Shown: positions 5,230 through 16,001 of the stretch, one piece after another | How positions within the stretch are numbered: position 1 is the first letter of the stretch | How the letters are laid out: every line of letters starts with the position of its first letter | IMG/VR virus record: IMGVR_UViG_3300045988_160359 | Span: 181,570 to 197,570 of that record | DNA: 16,001 nt | DNA from: a virus | Direction: 5' to 3' (one strand) | Notes under the pieces: model-generated | What the model saw: the letters and a program-made list of their open reading frames with translations, nothing else | Told to the model about the DNA's origin: nothing | The model's database searches: none | Translations under genes and position numbers: made by a program

Positions 5230-5240
5230 CTTATATATAT

Positions 5241-5269
5241 ATTATATTATATTTTTTTTAAAAAATCAA
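5241..5269 (-). promoter_or_regulatory. Promoter cassette copy C
   Basis: Minus: TTGATT ttttaaaaaaaatataa TATAAT ATATATATAAGATG. Plus AATCAA at 5264-5269 and ATTATA at 5241-5246. The -35 overlaps the stop of the upstream 49-aa ORF. No terminator lies upstream. Confidence 0.75.
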
Positions 5270-6447: not shown

Positions 6448-6479
6448 AAGCCCATTTCCTTCCTTTACCTTATATATAT

Positions 6480-6508
6480 ATTATATAATAATTTTTAATA
6501 AAAATCAA
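6480..6508 (-). promoter_or_regulatory. Promoter cassette copy D
   Basis: Minus: TTGATT tttattaaaaattatta TATAAT ATATATATAAGGTAAAGGAAGGAAATGG. Plus AATCAA at 6503-6508 and ATTATA at 6480-6485. Confidence 0.8.
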
Positions 6509-8731: not shown

Positions 8732-8746
8732 TCATCTTATATATAT

Positions 8747-8775
8747 ATTATATAATATTTTTTAATAAAAATCAA
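8747..8775 (-). promoter_or_regulatory. Promoter cassette copy E
   Basis: Minus: TTGATT tttattaaaaaatatta TATAAT ATATATATAAGATGAATGAAGGGAATGATACAAATGG. Plus AATCAA at 8770-8775 and ATTATA at 8747-8752. Confidence 0.8.
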
Positions 8776-8778
8776 AAA

Positions 8779-8807
8779 AAGGGATGAGGTGCTAGACCTC
8801 ATCCCTT
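8779..8807 (-). terminator. Rho-independent terminator ending operon F
   Basis: 12-bp stem (8779-8790 / 8796-8807, aagggatgaggt / acctcatccctt) with loop gctag. Followed on the minus strand by a 7-nt U-run. The lipoprotein gene's stop codon (8799-8801) lies inside the stem. Confidence 0.8.
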
Positions 8808-9485
8808 CAAAATACTTGTATCAATAATTGAAAAATTAGCCCTATGAACGTACAAATCCATATCATCAATTGTGATATGCGTGGTCTTGGGCAAATTCTT
8901 ACAAAGTTCCCAACTAACATCAGACCCGCTATACATTCGGATAGGCTCGCCTGTCTGAGACTGAATCACGACAACACGAGGCTTCACCGTACGCCCGTGA
9001 GACTGTTCGTTAATACACCACCACTGAACAGTCCAATAGTCAGTCCAATTCATACTATACCAAGGTTCATTAACATCAATATAAGCATCATTGGTGCGGA
9101 CGTGAGTATTAATAACCTCAGGAATATTCATATCCAAGATTTCAAGGCGGTTATCGGCAAAAATAATAGTTGAACCGCACGAATCAATCTGCTTGCCGTC
9201 GATATATACAGACATTACAGAGGACATTGTCCAATTATATTCCCAATATCCTTCGGTGCTATAAGTATATTCCTTCACCTTGTTCGGCTCAATATTGAAA
9301 GTAGAGCCGGTTGCGCTCAGCCACAGGTCGCCGGCGTTATCGTAAAAATCAGCATTGAAAGTGATTTTTACTGCTTCATCTTCTGGCTTATCAGTACCGA
9401 GAGTCTCGCCCTTCGGCCCGCCTACACAGCCGGCGCACATCAGAATAATCAAAACCGCCATCAACGCACACAGAAACTTACGCAT
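8799..9485 (-). CDS. Putative lipoprotein (~228 aa) with signal peptide and lipobox (MRKFLCALMAVLIILMCAG|C)
   Basis: Track ORF 8799..9569 is 5'-extended. The ATG at 9483-9485 has a GGGAGGAG RBS and overlaps the upstream stop (TAATG). Basic N-terminus, hydrophobic core and an A-G-C lipobox. The mature part is Trp/Tyr/Asn-rich. Last gene of the operon. Confidence 0.75.
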   Translation of the reverse strand: MRKFLCALMAVLIILMCAGCVGGPKGETLGTDKPEDEAVKITFNADFYDNAGDLWLSATGSTFNIEPNKVKEYTYSTEGYWEYNWTMSSVMSVYIDGKQIDSCGSTIIFADNRLEILDMNIPEVINTHVRTNDAYIDVNEPWYSMNWTDYWTVQWWCINEQSHGRTVKPRVVVIQSQTGEPIRMYSGSDVSWELCKNLPKTTHITIDDMDLYVHRANFSIIDTSILKG

Positions 9486-9735
9486 TAGTCTCCTCCCACC
9501 ATTTGGTAAACGGCATCCAGTGAAGAACAATATCGCCCTCGCAAATATTGCCCCAGACTTCTCCATCATAATCCCAATAACTTACTGAATAACTCTCTTC
9601 GGTCATATCGGGGCGGCCCCGATAAACAGGAGCGGTATGAACGACATAGGCCTTAGCCTTATCTTTAAGAGACGGATAATCACTGGGCACGCTTTCAAGA
9701 GCATTTACCCAACCACTTTTAATTTCAACGCTCAT
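9478..9735 (-). CDS. DUF551-like small protein (85 aa; ...GDIVLHWMPFTKWWEETNA)
   Basis: ATG at 9733-9735 lies inside the last codons of the upstream gene. The C-terminal HWMP motif with a Trp-rich tail and the N-terminal W...L.S.P segment resemble Pfam DUF551, from memory. Confidence 0.45.
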   Translation of the reverse strand: MSVEIKSGWVNALESVPSDYPSLKDKAKAYVVHTAPVYRGRPDMTEESYSVSYWDYDGEVWGNICEGDIVLHWMPFTKWWEETNA

Positions 9736-10018
9736 AAATAATCAAATTTCCTTCCTTATCATATAAGGGCGAGAGTGCTCCATTTGTATAAATATATACG
9801 ACGCCAGTATTTCGGTCAGCGACCGCATATGCATCTCCACCTAGCACCTCGCCCTTATCAACTGGGATAAATAGTTCTCTATCTTCTGGAAATACGATAC
9901 CATTATCTACGGTATTAGGTTTAAATAACGAGAAAATGTTAATAAACATAACCGCCACTAACAGAATCGCCGCAGTCAGGCACGCTGTTCCAAGATATTT
10001 CTTAATCGAATCCAACAT
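9725..10018 (-). CDS. Membrane-anchored small protein, paralog 2 of 2 (~97 aa)
   Basis: N-terminal TM helix (CLTAAILLVAVMFINIF), then FPEDRELFIPVDKGEVLGGDAYAVADRNTGVVYIYTNGALSPLYDKEGNLIIY. This aligns clearly with 10002..10364. The ATG (second codon of the track ORF) lies within the 3' end of the upstream paralog. Confidence 0.8.
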   Translation of the reverse strand: MLDSIKKYLGTACLTAAILLVAVMFINIFSLFKPNTVDNGIVFPEDRELFIPVDKGEVLGGDAYAVADRNTGVVYIYTNGALSPLYDKEGNLIIYER

Positions 10019-10364
10019 CAACTATTTCCTCGCTGGGGTCATATATCATCAATGACCCATCCTCATTATATAGCGGACAAAAACTGCCATATCCACCGAC
10101 GAAAATATACATAACGCCAGTAATAGAATCGGCATACACCGTGGCGGCATGTCCGCATACCTCACCACTATCTATTTTTAGAAATCGCTCACTGTCAATA
10201 GGGAAAAAACTCCCGTCTTGTAGTTCTTCCATTTTGTTCGCTGGACCGTTTACATAACTTTGTTCCATCTTATGGACTGTCTTAACTACTACCCAAATCA
10301 TCATACCCAAGAGTAATATCAGACAGACCCAAATCATAAAACGGTCTAAATCTATCTTCTTCAT
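10002..10364 (-). CDS. Membrane-anchored small protein, paralog 1 of 2 (120 aa)
   Basis: ATG with a GGAGGT RBS. TM helix (FMIWVCLILLLGMMIWVVV), then FPIDSERFLKIDSGEVCGHAATVYADSITGVMYIFVGGYGSFCPLYNEDGSLMIYD. Confidence 0.8.
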   Translation of the reverse strand: MKKIDLDRFMIWVCLILLLGMMIWVVVKTVHKMEQSYVNGPANKMEELQDGSFFPIDSERFLKIDSGEVCGHAATVYADSITGVMYIFVGGYGSFCPLYNEDGSLMIYDPSEEIVDVGFD

Positions 10365-11735: not shown

Positions 11736-11764
11736 TGAGAAATCACCTTTCCTTTACCTTATAT

Positions 11765-11793
11765 ATATATTATATTATAAATTTTTAAAAAAA
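11765..11793 (-). promoter_or_regulatory. Promoter cassette copy F
   Basis: Minus: TTGATT tttttaaaaatttataa TATAAT ATATATATAAGGTAAAGGAAAGGTG. Plus AATCAA at 11788-11793 and ATTATA at 11765-11770. Only a weak 6-bp hairpin lies upstream (gagaga...tctctc), so there is no strong terminator here. Confidence 0.75.
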
Positions 11794-11797
11794 TCAA

Positions 11798-12094
11798 TTA
11801 GAGAGAATATTTCTTGATAAAATCTCTCAAACCGTAGTCATAAAGGTCGGCATCAAGCTGGTCATCGTTGATATCGTCGAACGCATTAGGGATTTCGTAG
11901 ATTGCGTAATCATACTCGCGTTCACCCTCCTCGTAGAGGTCGGTCAATGTAGTATAACTATCAATCAGTTCATCACACAAACATCGACCGATTTCATCGG
12001 CCTCACTAAAAGTATTAATGTGGTAGATGCCGCAATTGAAATATCCGTGGAGCCCGCCATAATAGGGCTCAGTTGCGTAAATTGCTACTCTCAC
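11798..12094 (-). CDS. Acidic protein (~98 aa), a possible ArdA-like DNA-mimic or anti-restriction candidate (low confidence)
   Basis: The best start is GTG at 12092-12094. GAGAGGAG lies 7 nt upstream and the GTG is in 4-nt GTGA overlap with the HNH gene's stop. The track's upstream ATG (12121) has no SD. The N-terminal VAIYATEPYYGGLHGYF loosely resembles the ArdA N-terminal IYVANLxxYNxGxLxGxW motif. The C-terminal half is strongly D/E/Y-rich. Confidence 0.6.
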   Translation of the reverse strand: MRVAIYATEPYYGGLHGYFNCGIYHINTFSEADEIGRCLCDELIDSYTTLTDLYEEGEREYDYAIYEIPNAFDDINDDQLDADLYDYGLRDFIKKYSL

Positions 12095-12804
12095 GCTTTT
12101 ACTCCTCTCAAATAATTCCATTTACGAGAATACATAGAACCATTCATACGAATGGTATTGCACAGCTTAAAGAAAAACTTCTCTTCGGTGGTGCTAACCT
12201 TAGAATTGTGCTGACAAAGCCAATCCATAGCCTCCATTGCCGTGCCTCTAAAACCATCATTGTTGATAAAAACAGTATCAAGAGTGATACCCTCTTGAAC
12301 AATGAAGGCGCGACAAGTAGTATCAGTAGTAGTAGCCAGCCATTTACCCAGAATATCGCCGCAGTTTTCCAGAATTTTCCCAGTATCCCGGTCGGTGGGT
12401 TCGGCGGTCTCAATAGGTTTAATAGGCTCAGTACCTGCATTGATTACAACAGGGACAGGGCTCGCCACAATATCATTGTTAGCGCGCATAAGATTCTCGG
12501 CCTGGCTAACCCATTCCAGATTATCAACGCGGTTATTGCGCTTATTGTGATCGAGATGGTCAACAGTGAATGCCTCGCGGTCTTCGATGGGACACCACGT
12601 ATACATTACCAAACGATGTGCCATACGGTTGCCGTGTTTGGTCTTTACAGACACATAGCCGTTCTGAGAATAAATTTTCTTAGGAATAGGACGCTTATGA
12701 ATGTCCTTAAAGTTGCCGAAGTTGGAAACCCAAACTCCATACTCCTTATTAAACTTCCACTTTTCAAACTCAATATGCAAGGTGGGAAAAATCATCATAA
12801 ACAT
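12091..12804 (-). CDS. HNH homing endonuclease (NUMOD4 N-terminal motif plus HNH_3-type core)
   Basis: EFEKWKFNKEYGVWVSNFGNFKD matches the N-terminal signature of phage HNH homing endonucleases. HRLVMYTWCPIEDREAFTVDHLDHNKRNNRVDNLEWVSQAENL is the HNH_3 catalytic motif (DH..-N-N.....NL.W......N). ATG is M2 of the track ORF, with an AAAGGAATTG RBS. It is driven by its own cassette copy G. Confidence 0.85.
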   Translation of the reverse strand: MFMMIFPTLHIEFEKWKFNKEYGVWVSNFGNFKDIHKRPIPKKIYSQNGYVSVKTKHGNRMAHRLVMYTWCPIEDREAFTVDHLDHNKRNNRVDNLEWVSQAENLMRANNDIVASPVPVVINAGTEPIKPIETAEPTDRDTGKILENCGDILGKWLATTTDTTCRAFIVQEGITLDTVFINNDGFRGTAMEAMDWLCQHNSKVSTTEEKFFFKLCNTIRMNGSMYSRKWNYLRGVKA

Positions 12805-12834
12805 CAATTCCTTTCTCTTTTACCTTATATATAT

Positions 12835-12863
12835 ATTATATAATAATTTTTAAAAAAAATCAA
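12835..12863 (-). promoter_or_regulatory. Promoter cassette copy G (drives the HNH endonuclease)
   Basis: Minus: TTGATT ttttttaaaaattatta TATAAT ATATATATAAGGTAAAAGAGAAAGGAATTG ATG. The -35 (plus 12858-12863) lies inside the left arm of the terminator stem at 12860-12898. Confidence 0.8.
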
Positions 12864-12898
12864 TAGAGGATTTTACGTTTGGTAAAATCCTCTATTGA
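12860..12898 (-). terminator. Rho-independent terminator ending operon H
   Basis: 17-bp stem (12860-12876 / 12882-12898; ...atagaggattttac gtttg gtaaaatcctctat...). Followed on the minus strand by a U-run (plus 12852-12857 A-run). It begins 9 nt after the stop of 12907..13191. Confidence 0.8.
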
Positions 12899-12906
12899 CT
12901 AAACTA

Positions 12907-13191
12907 TTAGAAATTGACGTGCGCGTCTACCTGAACGCTATATACAGCCTTGGGTTTCATCTCAGCGAAAGCAACCCACTCTTGATGCCCCTGTTCAGCT
13001 CTCGCTCTATCAGGATATCGCTGAACGATGATAATATCGCCATCGCCCTTCCACATAGCGGTTTCATAGCCCTGGTCCACAGTATCACAAGTGTCAATGG
13101 TATAATCGCCAATAACATCGTGACCCACCTTATCAGCCTTTGAATAATCATTATTCATAATACCGAACATCAAATCAAACAAAGAATCCAT
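12907..13191 (-). CDS. Acidic hypothetical protein (~94 aa, MDSLFDLMFGIMNNDYSKADKV...)
   Basis: Track ORF 12907..13215 is extended. The ATG at 13189-13191 follows a perfect AAGGAGGTACAGT RBS. Confidence 0.75.
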   Translation of the reverse strand: MDSLFDLMFGIMNNDYSKADKVGHDVIGDYTIDTCDTVDQGYETAMWKGDGDIIIVQRYPDRARAEQGHQEWVAFAEMKPKAVYSVQVDAHVNF

Positions 13192-13202
13192 ACTGTACCT
13201 CC

Positions 13203-13595
13203 TTACGGCGCCCAATCTATCGGCTCAATCTCCATCCACCATCCGGCTCTAAACCAACTGGTGAGAGGATTTGACCGAGCCCTCTGACATCTATATACTC
13301 GATAATTAAAATCGTAAACTTTATTATAAATAGTATTGTAGGTAGCTTCATTAGTCTCTGCGTCATCACCATACCGTTCAATGTATCGAACGATATTTGC
13401 GCGTTCCGCATCTATCTGAAACTTATCATAGTCGCAAAGGCGTATAAAGAAACAGACAATGCCTAATGCGAGGAAAGCACAAAGAGCAACTCCTCCGATG
13501 ACACTAATACATTCATTTGTATCAACATCTCGAATCTTATGAAATAGAATGCTACAAATTACAAATACTACAAGAGGCAGCAATAAGAGAATCAT
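13203..13595 (-). CDS. Two-TM membrane protein, paralog 2 of 2 (~130 aa; ...NPLTSWFRAGWWMEIEPIDWAP)
   Basis: The ATG (M3 of the track ORF) is in 4-nt ATGA overlap with the upstream stop, 6 nt after AAGGAGG. Two hydrophobic helices precede a soluble C-terminal domain ending in the TSWFxxxW motif shared with 13592..13996. Confidence 0.8.
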   Translation of the reverse strand: MILLLLPLVVFVICSILFHKIRDVDTNECISVIGGVALCAFLALGIVCFFIRLCDYDKFQIDAERANIVRYIERYGDDAETNEATYNTIYNKVYDFNYRVYRCQRARSNPLTSWFRAGWWMEIEPIDWAP

Positions 13596-13996
13596 TTCCA
13601 TCCTCCTTCTGGAAATTCTACGGTAGTTAGGTCAGCCATCCAAGAGCGACCAAACCAAGAAGTCCATTCGTTGTTATAAGTATCGCGCATCGAGATAACC
13701 AATTCATTGTATTCATCTACATCGTGGACGAGTTCCGAGGTCAGACGAGCATCTTTGCGCCAATACTCATCATTAATACGCAGTTCAAGGAGCGCACGCT
13801 CCTTATCCATCGCGTCTTGGGTGCGGAGGTCAGAATCAAATGGCGTACAGGCACACATCGCCCCGCACACAATAAGACCAATCGCACAGCAAACCGCAAT
13901 TAAGAGAAAAGCCATAGAAATATCACGGTTTTCAAACTTATGGCACAGATAAGCGCTGATAATAAATACTATAATAAACAAAATAGTAGTTAGCAT
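13592..13996 (-). CDS. Two-TM membrane protein, paralog 1 of 2 (134 aa; ...NNEWTSWFGRSWMADLTTVEFPEGGWK)
   Basis: ATG at 13994-13996 overlaps the upstream stop (ATGCTAA). Helices VFIISAYLCHKFENRD and ISMAFLLIAVCCAIGLIVCGAM align with the paralog. Confidence 0.8.
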   Translation of the reverse strand: MLTTILFIIVFIISAYLCHKFENRDISMAFLLIAVCCAIGLIVCGAMCACTPFDSDLRTQDAMDKERALLELRINDEYWRKDARLTSELVHDVDEYNELVISMRDTYNNEWTSWFGRSWMADLTTVEFPEGGWK

Positions 13997-14184
13997 AGAT
14001 GAACAACCTCCACGATAATTTCAGTGGCTTCCACAATAATTGTTATAGACAGAATATTCAAAACTGCCCAAATGAACCATTTGCCCTGCTCACGGTAATA
14101 TTTAAGTATATGATAGGATTTATACATATAAGCAAAAATAACAACCATACAAAGGGCAAATGTAATAATACCAAAAACAGACAT
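13990..14184 (-). CDS. Two-TM membrane mini-protein (~64 aa)
   Basis: Real ATG is M4 of track ORF 13990..14193, after GGGGTGATTACT. Two hydrophobic helices separated by KSYHILKYYREQGKW. Confidence 0.7.
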   Translation of the reverse strand: MSVFGIITFALCMVVIFAYMYKSYHILKYYREQGKWFIWAVLNILSITIIVEATEIIVEVVHLC

Positions 14185-14189
14185 AGTAA

Positions 14190-14366
14190 TCACCCCTGAA
14201 ATAGATTATAAATAATACAGGCCGCGCAAGCAAGAGCGCCAGTAAGTGGGAGAATAATGCTCCATTTATGATTAAGGTAAGGGTCTTCAATGCTCTCTAA
14301 GCCGATAGCAAGGAGGATAATACCAAAACCAAATAAAAGGAGTTGGTTCAAAATATTGAAAAGCAT
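14190..14366 (-). CDS. Two-TM membrane mini-protein (58 aa, MLFNILNQLLLFGFGIILLAIGLESIEDPYLNHKWSIILPLTGALACAACIIYNLFQG)
   Basis: Not in the track. The ATG is in TAATG overlap with the upstream stop, and its own stop TGA lies in the next gene's RBS. I read the frame codon by codon. Confidence 0.55.
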   Translation of the reverse strand: MLFNILNQLLLFGFGIILLAIGLESIEDPYLNHKWSIILPLTGALACAACIIYNLFQG

Positions 14367-14539
14367 TATAACACCTGTTCCTTTATAAAGAATATAGTCA
14401 TAAGAATAAATCCTATAACCTCAAAAATTACTACTATTCCAAAAGGCCATTCTCCATTTTTAAACGCGCACCACATTGTCTCAATCCCTATACAGATAGA
14501 GCCTCCAAGAACCATAAGGAGAATAAGGTGGAATATCAT
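14366..14539 (-). CDS. Two-TM membrane mini-protein (57 aa, MIFHLILLMVLGGSICIGIETMWCAFKNGEWPFGIVVIFEVIGFILMTIFFIKEQVL)
   Basis: Track ORF 14366..14611 is 5'-extended over the upstream gene. The real ATG at 14537-14539 follows a perfect GGAGGAACGCT RBS, in ATGA overlap with the stop of 14536..14724. Confidence 0.65.
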   Translation of the reverse strand: MIFHLILLMVLGGSICIGIETMWCAFKNGEWPFGIVVIFEVIGFILMTIFFIKEQVL

Positions 14540-14724
14540 AGCGTTCCTCCAATCAATTGAACAATGAGGACAATCCACATAGTAATGAGAGCAACTGCGA
14601 CAAGAATACACATAAATGCTATCATAATATCGAATAATTTACTCTCACTCTTTTCGTGGAGAAATGTATTAAAAAAGAAAAAGCCGATACCTGTGAGAAC
14701 GAGAGCAAACAGTATTTTATTCAT
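14536..14724 (-). CDS. Two-TM membrane mini-protein (62 aa)
   Basis: ATG at 14722-14724 with a GGGGAGGAAG RBS, in ATGA overlap with the phosphoesterase stop. Helices ILFALVLTGIGFFFF and IMIAFMCILVAVALITMWIVLIV. Confidence 0.75.
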   Translation of the reverse strand: MNKILFALVLTGIGFFFFNTFLHEKSESKLFDIMIAFMCILVAVALITMWIVLIVQLIGGTL

Positions 14725-15464
14725 TGCGGCTTCCTCCCCAATCGGTAGCCACGCTTACGAGCGTTATACGTGGCTCTATCAATCGTATCGCGATGAATAG
14801 ATACGATGTTCGCGAGATGGCCTTCTTTCATAAATTTATTGAAATTTATAGGCTCGTAGCCAATCACATCAGCGCATACATTAAAGTGATATTTATCATT
14901 TTTATGAGAGCGGGAATGATCGTGCCCGTGAATATTCATACACCAATCACATCCCTTAATAGGCTCGTGAGAGAGCATCAGCTTCTCTCCAATGACTAAA
15001 ACACCAGTGTATACCTCGTCGAAAAGGCGGTTATCGGCGCTGACTTCCCAGCAAGGAACATTGTCGAGAAAATCATAACTATCGGTAATGGAGTAAGCGC
15101 AATCAGGATAGAGACGCTTCATCTCATCCAATGCTTCGTGCTTCTGGAATAGACCCTTATCAAATTTCTGCCTGAAAATCTGACGCTTATAGTTGGAAGC
15201 ACCAGAATCGTGGTTGCCCATTACGAGAATTTTATACTTGGCACGAAGCTGGCACACATAGGAAATATCGCCAACATCACCAAGGATAATCAGCGTATCA
15301 GCCCTGCCACACTTAGCATTAATGCGTTTCACTTGCTCTTCGGCGGAGGGACGGTCAGCATATACGTGAATGAGGTCGGGGTCATTAAAATGCGTATCTG
15401 AAATAATATGACACGTACCGGACGCGCCCCAATACTGAAACGGCGGGTAGAGACCTTCAATCAT
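14721..15464 (-). CDS. Calcineurin-like metallophosphoesterase (Ser/Thr-phosphatase-like), 247 aa
   Basis: MPP signature motifs occur in order: IISDTHF (DxH), LIILGDVGD (GDxxD), LVMGNHD (GNHD) and NIHGHDH (GHxH). ATG at 15462-15464 with an AAGGAGGAGG RBS. Confidence 0.85.
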   Translation of the reverse strand: MIEGLYPPFQYWGASGTCHIISDTHFNDPDLIHVYADRPSAEEQVKRINAKCGRADTLIILGDVGDISYVCQLRAKYKILVMGNHDSGASNYKRQIFRQKFDKGLFQKHEALDEMKRLYPDCAYSITDSYDFLDNVPCWEVSADNRLFDEVYTGVLVIGEKLMLSHEPIKGCDWCMNIHGHDHSRSHKNDKYHFNVCADVIGYEPINFNKFMKEGHLANIVSIHRDTIDRATYNARKRGYRLGRKPQ

Positions 15465-15466
15465 AG

Positions 15467-15697
15467 TTAATCCTCCTCCTTATAAGCGGGAATTCTCGGC
15501 TGAGGCATCGGAATCTCAGCCCAATAATCAGTATCATCAACAGGATAACTTTTTTCAAGACGCCACCAAACATAGTGGCCTTCGCCTTCATCTTCGAGAC
15601 TACATACATCACAGGCGAAAGGATTGCCCGGCTCGAAACATACGAGAACATCAGTTCCAAGTTCAGGTCGCTTCTCAGAAATCAAATGCCACTTCAT
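15467..15697 (-). CDS. DUF551-like protein (76 aa; MKWHLISEKRPELGTDVLV...DYWAEIPMPQP)
   Basis: The N-terminal MKWxxISEKxPE...VLV and the C-terminal W..IPMP pattern match my memory of the DUF551 family common in enterobacterial phages. GAGGAGGATACGCT RBS. Confidence 0.55.
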   Translation of the reverse strand: MKWHLISEKRPELGTDVLVCFEPGNPFACDVCSLEDEGEGHYVWWRLEKSYPVDDTDYWAEIPMPQPRIPAYKEED

Positions 15698-15709: not shown

Positions 15710-15952
15710 TCACATAATCTCATCGAACGCCTGTTCGATTGCGTCATCTTCCCGATAATGATAACTGTCTTCCAGTTCAATGGCTCGTGCAGCGATTCTA
15801 TCCACACAAGCCTCGGACTCAGGGTAGTTTTCAAGAATATAATCGCGCTTGGTAAGGAAACGATACTCATCGTATGCATCTTTAAGGTCATTCATAGTCA
15901 TCTCAACAGTCTGGCCGTATTCAGTTCTGAAACGCATTACAATATCATTCAT
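15710..15952 (-). CDS. Acidic hypothetical protein (80 aa), first gene of operon H
   Basis: ATG at 15950-15952 directly after the cassette H leader. That leader and the first two codons (MN) are identical to those of the 716..2452 gene. Confidence 0.75.
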   Translation of the reverse strand: MNDIVMRFRTEYGQTVEMTMNDLKDAYDEYRFLTKRDYILENYPESEACVDRIAARAIELEDSYHYREDDAIEQAFDEIM

Positions 15953-15986
15953 TTTGTATCATTTCCTTTCTTCATCTTATATATAT

Positions 15987-16001
15987 ATTATATTATAAAT
16001 T
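15987..16001 (-). promoter_or_regulatory. Promoter cassette copy H (partial; -10 and leader only inside the window)
   Basis: 15947-16001 is identical to 2447-2501 (copy B). By that offset the -10 lies at 15987-15992 and the -35 would be just beyond the window end. Confidence 0.6.

Follow-up and report, generated by a model that had tools for sequence, protein, structure and literature searches.

Four predicted two-helix membrane mini-proteins encoded as fixed and optional cassettes behind a phosphoesterase gene in a large human-gut phage

Here we describe four consecutive genes, A to D, in a 16,001-nucleotide stretch of DNA (positions 181,570 to 197,570 of IMG/VR virus record IMGVR_UViG_3300045988_160359) from an abundant human-gut phage of roughly 200 kb; the whole stretch is called the window, and coordinates refer to it unless a related locus is named. 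An earlier note, made from the letters of the window, had described these genes as a run of membrane mini-proteins that a list of open reading frames (ORFs) mostly misses. We consider it highly probable that A–D are real genes for membrane mini-proteins; they are under purifying selection and, in the searches reported below, appear as lineage-restricted orphans, found only in this phage group. As to their role, we lean towards independent accessory proteins that may act at the host membrane—a reading we hold with only moderate confidence. The four genes are:

A: 14536..14724, minus strand; 62 amino acids (aa), predicted two-transmembrane (2-TM) mini-protein, optional cassette
B: 14366..14539, minus strand; 57 aa, predicted 2-TM mini-protein, optional cassette
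C: 14190..14366, minus strand; 58 aa, predicted 2-TM mini-protein, in every haplotype seen
D: 13990..14184, minus strand; 64 aa, predicted 2-TM mini-protein with a basic loop KSYHILKYYREQGKW, in every haplotype seen

Their coding status was assessed in about 50 related loci from human-gut metagenomes (IMG/VR, ENA, Logan and JGI; longest contigs 197–201 kb), gathered through the phosphoesterase gene directly upstream of A (PPase), through a fusion protein, P0001, and through exact-match look-ups of A–D. A check of related genomes for frameshifts and stops, which the earlier note had proposed, found the frames kept in 8 distinct protein alleles of A, 13 of B, 15 of C and 11 of D, diverging by up to 34%, with three exceptions. 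All 13 alleles of B are 57 aa long and all 11 of D are 64 aa; the eight intact alleles of A stand beside one frameshifted copy, which lies in a contig of 1x coverage. For C, 13 of the 15 alleles are 58 aa; the allele of L046 (about 1612-1617) has TAG in place of CAG (Gln57), giving 56 aa, and that of L037 is annotated as 61 aa from a different start. Pooled Nei-Gojobori ratios of non-synonymous to synonymous change (dN/dS) are 0.35 for A, 0.27 for B, 0.17 for C and 0.40 for D, compared with 0.06–0.19 for neighbouring genes, and the non-synonymous deficit in the most divergent allele pair is significant in each case (P = 0.005, 0.0004, 4e-6 and 0.01, respectively). Polar motifs are invariant (KYYREQG in D, FKNG and KEQVL in B, NLF in C); the antisense open frames are not conserved, varying in length or disappearing between haplotypes.

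A Kyte-Doolittle hydropathy analysis (19-residue scan, threshold 1.6) gives exactly two segments above threshold in each protein—2-23 and 25-62 in A, 0-26 and 28-57 in B, 0-28 and 33-56 in C, 0-24 and 34-64 in D—separated by a polar loop of 10–15 residues. Coordinates, strand and hydropathy thus agree with the four two-segment ORFs first described, and insertion of the proteins in the membrane as hairpins would follow from this profile. A Trp beside Lys and Glu had been ascribed to every loop; it is invariant in the loops of B, C and D across the allele alignments, but the loop of A (HEKSESKLFD) has the Lys and Glu without the Trp. The loop of D is strongly basic (K+R=4) and its C-terminal end acidic; by the positive-inside rule this loop is predicted to be cytoplasmic. 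The loops of A–C are net-acidic with almost no positive charges, so the orientation of these three proteins in the membrane is uncertain. The C-terminal tails read GGTL in A, KEQVL in B, NLFQG in C and IIVEVVHLC, acidic and hydrophobic, in D.

Translation of D starts at the ATG at 14184, and for B the true start codon is the ATG at 14539 rather than the GTG at 14611. The ORF list, with its threshold of 60 aa, holds B only as an 81-aa GTG-extended ORF and D as a 67-aa GTG ORF, and C falls below 60 aa. The genes are indeed obscured in that mechanical list, but public gene callers have all four, at 62, 57, 58 and 64 aa, as 'hypothetical protein' in NCBI, IMG, ENA and Logan calls and in 90%-identity clusters of 9–65 members; only the 60-aa threshold therefore misses them. 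The four had also been described as chained throughout by ATGA or TAATG overlaps behind strong ribosome-binding sites (RBSs). This holds for the first part of the array: PPase/A and A/B share an ATGA overlap and B/C a TAATG overlap, and the Shine-Dalgarno sequences 5' of A (GGGGAGGAAG) and B (GGAGGAACGCT) are strong. The C/D junction, however, has no overlap (TGA, 5 nucleotides (nt), ATG), and the sites of C (AAGGAACAGGTG) and D (GGGGTGA) are weak. D in turn overlaps the next gene, E, by 7 nt (ATGCTAA).

The array varies between genomes by whole genes. The 33 distinct PPase-to-E sequences comprise 16 with all four genes (ABCD), 9 without B (A-CD), 4 without A (-BCD) and 4 without either (--CD); A is absent from 8 of the 33 haplotypes and B from 13, and C and D are present in every locus. 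Co-conservation of the array in related phages, which the earlier note had suggested testing, holds in these loci for C and D, with A and B optional. Two haplotypes carry a further cassette between PPase and A:

Cassette X: L002 7900-8058 and L188 1268-1426; 52 aa, two hydrophobic segments (MIVIFILGIV...AVILLGV)

In L188, X shares an ATGA overlap with the PPase stop and is followed after 1 nt by the start of A. Translational coupling is kept in every arrangement: it takes the form ATGA at PPase>A, PPase>X, A>B and A>C, GTGA at PPase>B, and TAATG at PPase>C and B>C, and a GGAGGAA Shine-Dalgarno in the 3' end of the upstream gene is reused in all of them. The 3' end of PPase itself carries the Shine-Dalgarno GGGGAGGAA and the ATGA overlap that serve whichever cassette comes next; where A and B are missing, the phosphoesterase gene is coupled straight to C. 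The first codons of B differ between alleles that lie beside PPase and alleles that lie beside A, and the arrangements are therefore old alternatives, not fresh deletions. Gain and loss of this sort, one gene at a time, is that of an ordinary phage accessory region. The whole region is mosaic, every gene existing as discrete divergent alleles reshuffled between genomes (allele identities are 69–100% for PPase and 74–100% for the two genes upstream of it); with mosaicism this widespread, the allele divergence of A–D is not unusual in itself.

Immediately downstream of D lie two genes that had been described as a paralogous 2-TM pair, a description that profile comparison bears out (hhalign probability 92%, E-value 8e-7):

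E: 13592..13996, minus strand; 134 aa, N-terminal 2-TM hairpin and helical C-terminal domain
F: 13203..13601, minus strand; 132 aa (130 aa from the ATG at 13595), paralog of E; dN/dS 0.16

A–D show no such kinship. They are mutually unrelated by hhalign (probability <2%), and the idea that they are paralogs of one another was rejected on this score; each is likewise below 2% against the allele profiles of E and F. Against the broad E/F family, of which A–D could be truncated members reduced to the hairpin, the values are higher (A 52% over 46 columns, B 71% over 22 columns, C 37%, D 7.5%), which probably reflects shared transmembrane composition; as a positive control, the N-terminal hairpin of E/F scores 96–98% against its own family. 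No significant Pfam, PHROG, NCBIfam or PADLOC family was found for A–D, and the profile searches returned no anti-defence or superinfection-exclusion family for them. Holin profiles from Pfam, PHROGs and NCBIfam gave nothing at threshold, the best matches being unrelated membrane families at E-values >0.001, and the PADLOC defence profiles gave no match for A–G at an E-value <=1. Beyond profile libraries, scans of IMG/VR with the A–D allele alignments returned only the same two contigs (none for A), a GTDB genome scan with D returned no match, and a JGI metagenome scan with C returned the same phage group only, at >=69% identity. The INPHARED phage collection held no match, as DNA or protein, to the region or to the phosphoesterase. 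Concatenated A–D also matched none of 5.8 billion proteins in a word index, a weak negative, as this index misses known close relatives. Finally, the A–D array is absent behind distant PPase homologs (L003-L016, 35–71% identity), which have unrelated genes downstream.

A–D belong to a transcription unit of ten genes, from 15992 to 12858 on the minus strand: two small acidic proteins, PPase, A–D, E, F and G. Its remaining features are:

Operon promoter: 15955..16001, minus strand; 17-mer TATAATATATATATAAG at 15976-15992, with the -35 part beyond the window end
Gene 1: 15710..15952, minus strand; 80 aa, acidic, soluble, no hydrophobic segment; dN/dS 0.06
Gene 2: 15467..15697, minus strand; 76 aa, soluble, no hydrophobic segment; dN/dS 0.19
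Gene 3 (PPase): 14721..15464, minus strand; calcineurin-like Metallophos phosphoesterase, 247 aa
G: 12907..13191, minus strand; 94 aa, soluble, last gene of the operon
Intrinsic terminator: 12858..12900, minus strand; 19-bp stem followed by a T run, closing the operon
Promoter copies: 656-672, 2476-2492, 5230-5246, 6469-6485, 8736-8752, 11758-11774, 12824-12840 and 15976-15992, minus strand

Every plausible gene of the window lies on the minus strand, where we assigned 40 genes by our own choice of ORFs and starts. Just 9 of the 40 have any hydrophobic segment, and by hydropathy the six 2-TM genes among them are consecutive; under random gene order, six in a row would occur with a chance of 35/C(40,6), or ~9e-6. 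Together with the Metallophos matches of PPase (Pfam PF00149, E-value 6e-8; phrog_547, E-value 8.5e-22), this upholds the description of six consecutive small membrane genes after a phosphatase. Profile searches gave gene 1 no family match. Directly past the terminator come the next promoter copy and then an HNH endonuclease gene.

The promoter 17-mer is present in eight copies on the minus strand (seven exact), with 0.32 expected by chance, and the eight copies aligned over ~45 bp yield TTGATT-N17-TATAAT with a conserved AT-rich extension. It looks like a strong promoter of the sigma-70/sigma-A type, such as a host RNA polymerase (RNAP) would read. Because of this resemblance to host promoters, and because the gene content is mostly small acidic proteins, the data suggest that the operon is expressed early, in line with the early-type operon originally proposed. 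Past TATAAT the extension reads ATATATATAAG(G/A)T(A/G)AA, and all eight copies are on the same strand. They break up the 16-kb window into short operons whose products are small and mostly acidic, a regulon-like, early-type layout. A second cluster of membrane or secreted proteins occupies 8799-10364 on the minus strand; a tandem pair of DUF6440 proteins, of 120 and 97 aa and both hydrophobic in an N-terminal segment, is found there along with a 228-aa DUF5052 protein whose signal is lipoprotein-like (LMCAGC).

E and F, unlike A–D, have relatives well outside this phage group. A profile search found 159 clusters (50% identity) at an E-value <=1e-3 among 1.84 billion representatives; nearly all members are about 110–150 aa (typically ~135 aa), match over their full length and share the motif AERE.LVYQLE...EFN.KV....NPWTSWF....IEPI (in short form EFN..V....NPWTSWF....IEPI). 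Members include:

E/F family members: P0102-P0249; L052, L054, L056, L163

Sequence comparison with Pfam, PHROG and PDB gave no match for this family. A possible resemblance of its C-terminal motif to LemA was dropped when no Pfam LemA match was found in 66 members. An AlphaFold2 (AF2) model of E from 21 sequences (predicted local distance difference test, pLDDT, 78) places helices at 2-20, 26-50, 60-75 and 83-108, and comparison of its fold returned only generic helical hairpins and two uncharacterised BFVD phage proteins. Distant members occur as single copies on phage-like contigs of 119–175 kb, among small early-looking genes; another small membrane ORF is at times nearby, but in the contigs examined A–D never are. 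A genome scan with back-translated NPWTSWF gave at least 120 loci, mostly by chance, with one true E/F homolog among the matches listed, and E and F concatenated returned only a fusion protein from the word-indexed proteins. One family gene (L163 132-548) lies on CAKRDI010000001.1, a contig of 224,385 bp binned in an uncultured Mediterraneibacter metagenome-assembled genome from Hadza gut; it probably derives from a phage that was binned together with its host or in place of it. This one homolog-bearing contig and the strong GGAGG sites hint weakly at a Bacillota/Lachnospiraceae host for the phage clade. E/F is a widespread family without a name in Pfam or PHROG, and it deserves a family definition.

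Genes for homing endonucleases lie beside the locus and have also inserted into it. An HNH_3 gene is found downstream of the operon (12091-12804, minus strand), a GIY-YIG/NUMOD1 gene lies just 5' of PPase in L039 (681-1316), L045 (3546-4181) and L048 (3564-4199), and an endonuclease-like insert sits between PPase and A in L002, L035, L049 and L194. In one lineage an in-frame deletion joins E (residues 1-73) to the HNH protein from about residue 79 onward, its C-terminal part; lost are the soluble domain of E, the whole of F and G, the terminator and the promoter copy that follows. The fusion is found in nine contigs from several samples (L021 8001-8669, P0001; also L022-L025), and this recurrence means that the tail of E, F and G are dispensable in nature. 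Several loci raise the possibility of TAG recoding. The 277-aa endonuclease-like ORF that sits between PPase and A (L049 1282-2115 and L035 5171-6004) is interrupted by in-frame TAG codons only (4 and 3 times) and apart from these is of full length; a distant phage gene has TAG-TAG in frame (L054 3085-3528); in the L046 allele of C, TAG stands at a position that is CAG, a Gln codon, in every other allele; and TAG is the stop of only 1 of the 40 window genes. No suppressor tRNA was found in the related loci examined.

The following account would join these observations. Each of A–D would be a hairpin of ~60 aa and two transmembrane helices inserted in the host cytoplasmic membrane; the four would be transcribed within the ten-gene operon from the sigma-70/sigma-A-like promoter, with translation coupled to that of the phosphoesterase gene ahead of them. 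They would be accessory cassettes and not parts of one machine, with C and D fixed and A, B and X optional, and each protein would act alone, early in infection, on a membrane-located target. That target may be either the DNA-entry apparatus of competing phages, as with T4 Imm and HK97 gp15, or a host membrane protein, in the manner of the SPO1 genes discussed below. The turnover of A, B and X beside a constant C and D is consistent with an accessory role of the competition type, though it is not specific to one function. We find this account, taken as a whole, somewhat likelier than not; superinfection exclusion in particular is possible but doubtful. The roles put forward in the earlier note—superinfection exclusion, sensing or inhibition of defence systems, membrane remodelling—are guesses. 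A bolder form, which we think improbable, is that X, A, B, C, D and E/F make up a modular battery of hairpins, swapped at the conserved Shine-Dalgarno and start-codon junction and each neutralising a different membrane threat. If it were true, the threats would be the DNA-entry proteins of rival phages or membrane-anchored effectors of host defence, the cassettes that a strain carries would be the record of an arms race still under way in the human gut, and modules of this kind in large gut phages would have the E/F (NPWTSWF) family as their conserved core.

Several points weigh against the account of independent membrane proteins. The transmembrane calls for A–D come from hydropathy alone, the AF2 model backing E only, and nothing links A–D to superinfection exclusion over any other membrane role. 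The haplotype counts are biased, because the queries that brought in the loci were A, B, C, D, E or PPase themselves, and the metagenome assemblies behind them can be chimeric. Early expression is read from promoter resemblance. The dN/dS values of A and D (0.35–0.40), moreover, are two to six times those of their neighbours, which could reflect relaxed constraint rather than an arms race.

A different way to read six consecutive, tightly coupled 2-TM genes is as one hetero-oligomeric membrane complex of A–D with E and F—a channel, scaffold or anchor—whose stoichiometry is set by the coupling. No haplotype lacks C, D or the E hairpin, as such a complex would have it, and A is weakly in register with the E/F hairpin (the hhalign probability of 52% given above). 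An obligate A–F complex is nonetheless disfavoured, because A, B, X and the E tail with F and G are each absent somewhere while the rest stays intact: natural genomes without A, B or X keep the other genes intact, and the E-HNH fusion lineage, seen in several samples, does without the E C-terminal domain, F and G. E/F members in the other large phage-like contigs examined also occur without A–D. We regard the full complex as unlikely; C, D and the E hairpin could still form a smaller core.

The protein format itself brings lysis to mind. Class II holins are typically ~60–70 aa long with two transmembrane helices, a size and segment number that A–D match, and several small membrane genes in series can be sets of holins and antiholins. 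Yet a lysis cassette of class II holins, pinholins or antiholins is the least probable of the explanations considered. The operon and the scanned window genes hold no endolysin or spanin (most small ORFs lie outside that scan), the promoter is common to seven other operons of small acidic proteins and is early-type, not late, and the tails of A–D are not the charged C-terminal tail typical of holins; A and B, besides, are dispensable, and the holin profiles of Pfam, PHROGs and NCBIfam found no match. Alternatively, A–D could be young, de novo-like filler ORFs, weakly constrained or decaying, and kept for the RBS and coupling signals they provide to E, F and G. They are orphans, A and B can be lost, the dN/dS of A and D exceeds that of neighbouring genes, and hydrophobic peptides arise easily from T-rich sequence. 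What makes this very unlikely is that dN/dS is significantly below 1 in all four genes, that length stays constant across alleles differing by up to 34% in protein sequence, that polar loop and tail motifs (KYYREQG, FKNG, KEQVL, NLF) are invariant, and that PPase couples directly to C when A and B are absent, so that filler is unneeded.

No class of phage genes is less well understood than that for small membrane proteins, several known examples of which decide the winner in a co-infected cell. What is added here is four orphan families whose coding status is shown, along with a natural haplotype series (ABCD, A-CD, -BCD, --CD, X+) that is a ready-made genetic design for testing the roles of such genes. 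Arrays of small membrane genes are common in the early or accessory regions of large phages, and A–D are new orphan members of this class; current views are therefore not overturned.

Among characterised systems, T4 Imm is a 9.3-kDa membrane protein of 83 aa that blocks genome entry by binding the tape-measure protein, and HK97 gp15 is similar to it (bioRxiv 10.64898/2026.03.06.709160). Like these non-essential proteins, which act at the cytoplasmic membrane, A–D are small and phage-made, and hydropathy places them in that membrane; the invariant loop Trp of B, C and D likewise has a counterpart in Imm, whose loop Trp (W50) contributes to activity (bioRxiv 10.64898/2026.03.06.709160). There is, however, no sequence similarity to Imm or gp15 (no PHROG or Pfam match), and Imm is modelled with four helices (bioRxiv 10.64898/2026.03.06.709160), whereas A–D are predicted two-helix hairpins, here as four to five unrelated proteins in tandem. 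The host-takeover genes of SPO1 are small, early and clustered in short operons; strong host-type promoters and strong RBSs give them high expression, each can be dispensed with in the laboratory, and they target host processes. The products described act on cytoplasmic processes, and the source makes no mention of membranes (PMC6873191). The window shares the layout of short operons of small genes, with eight promoters, GGAGG-type Shine-Dalgarno sites and proteins mostly <130 aa, but A–D, predicted to be in the membrane, have no homology to the SPO1 products. Class II holins and pinholins (for example S21) resemble A–D in their ~60–70 aa and two transmembrane helices, and differ in operon context, promoter class, tail chemistry and the outcome of profile searches. 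In organisation the locus resembles the hyperplastic accessory regions and morons of large phages, where single small genes are present or absent in otherwise collinear genomes; as in hyperplastic regions, HNH, GIY-YIG and a third endonuclease-like gene lie in or beside the locus. Classical morons, though, bring their own promoter and terminator, whereas the A–D cassettes are swapped at the Shine-Dalgarno and start-codon junction with their coupling kept.

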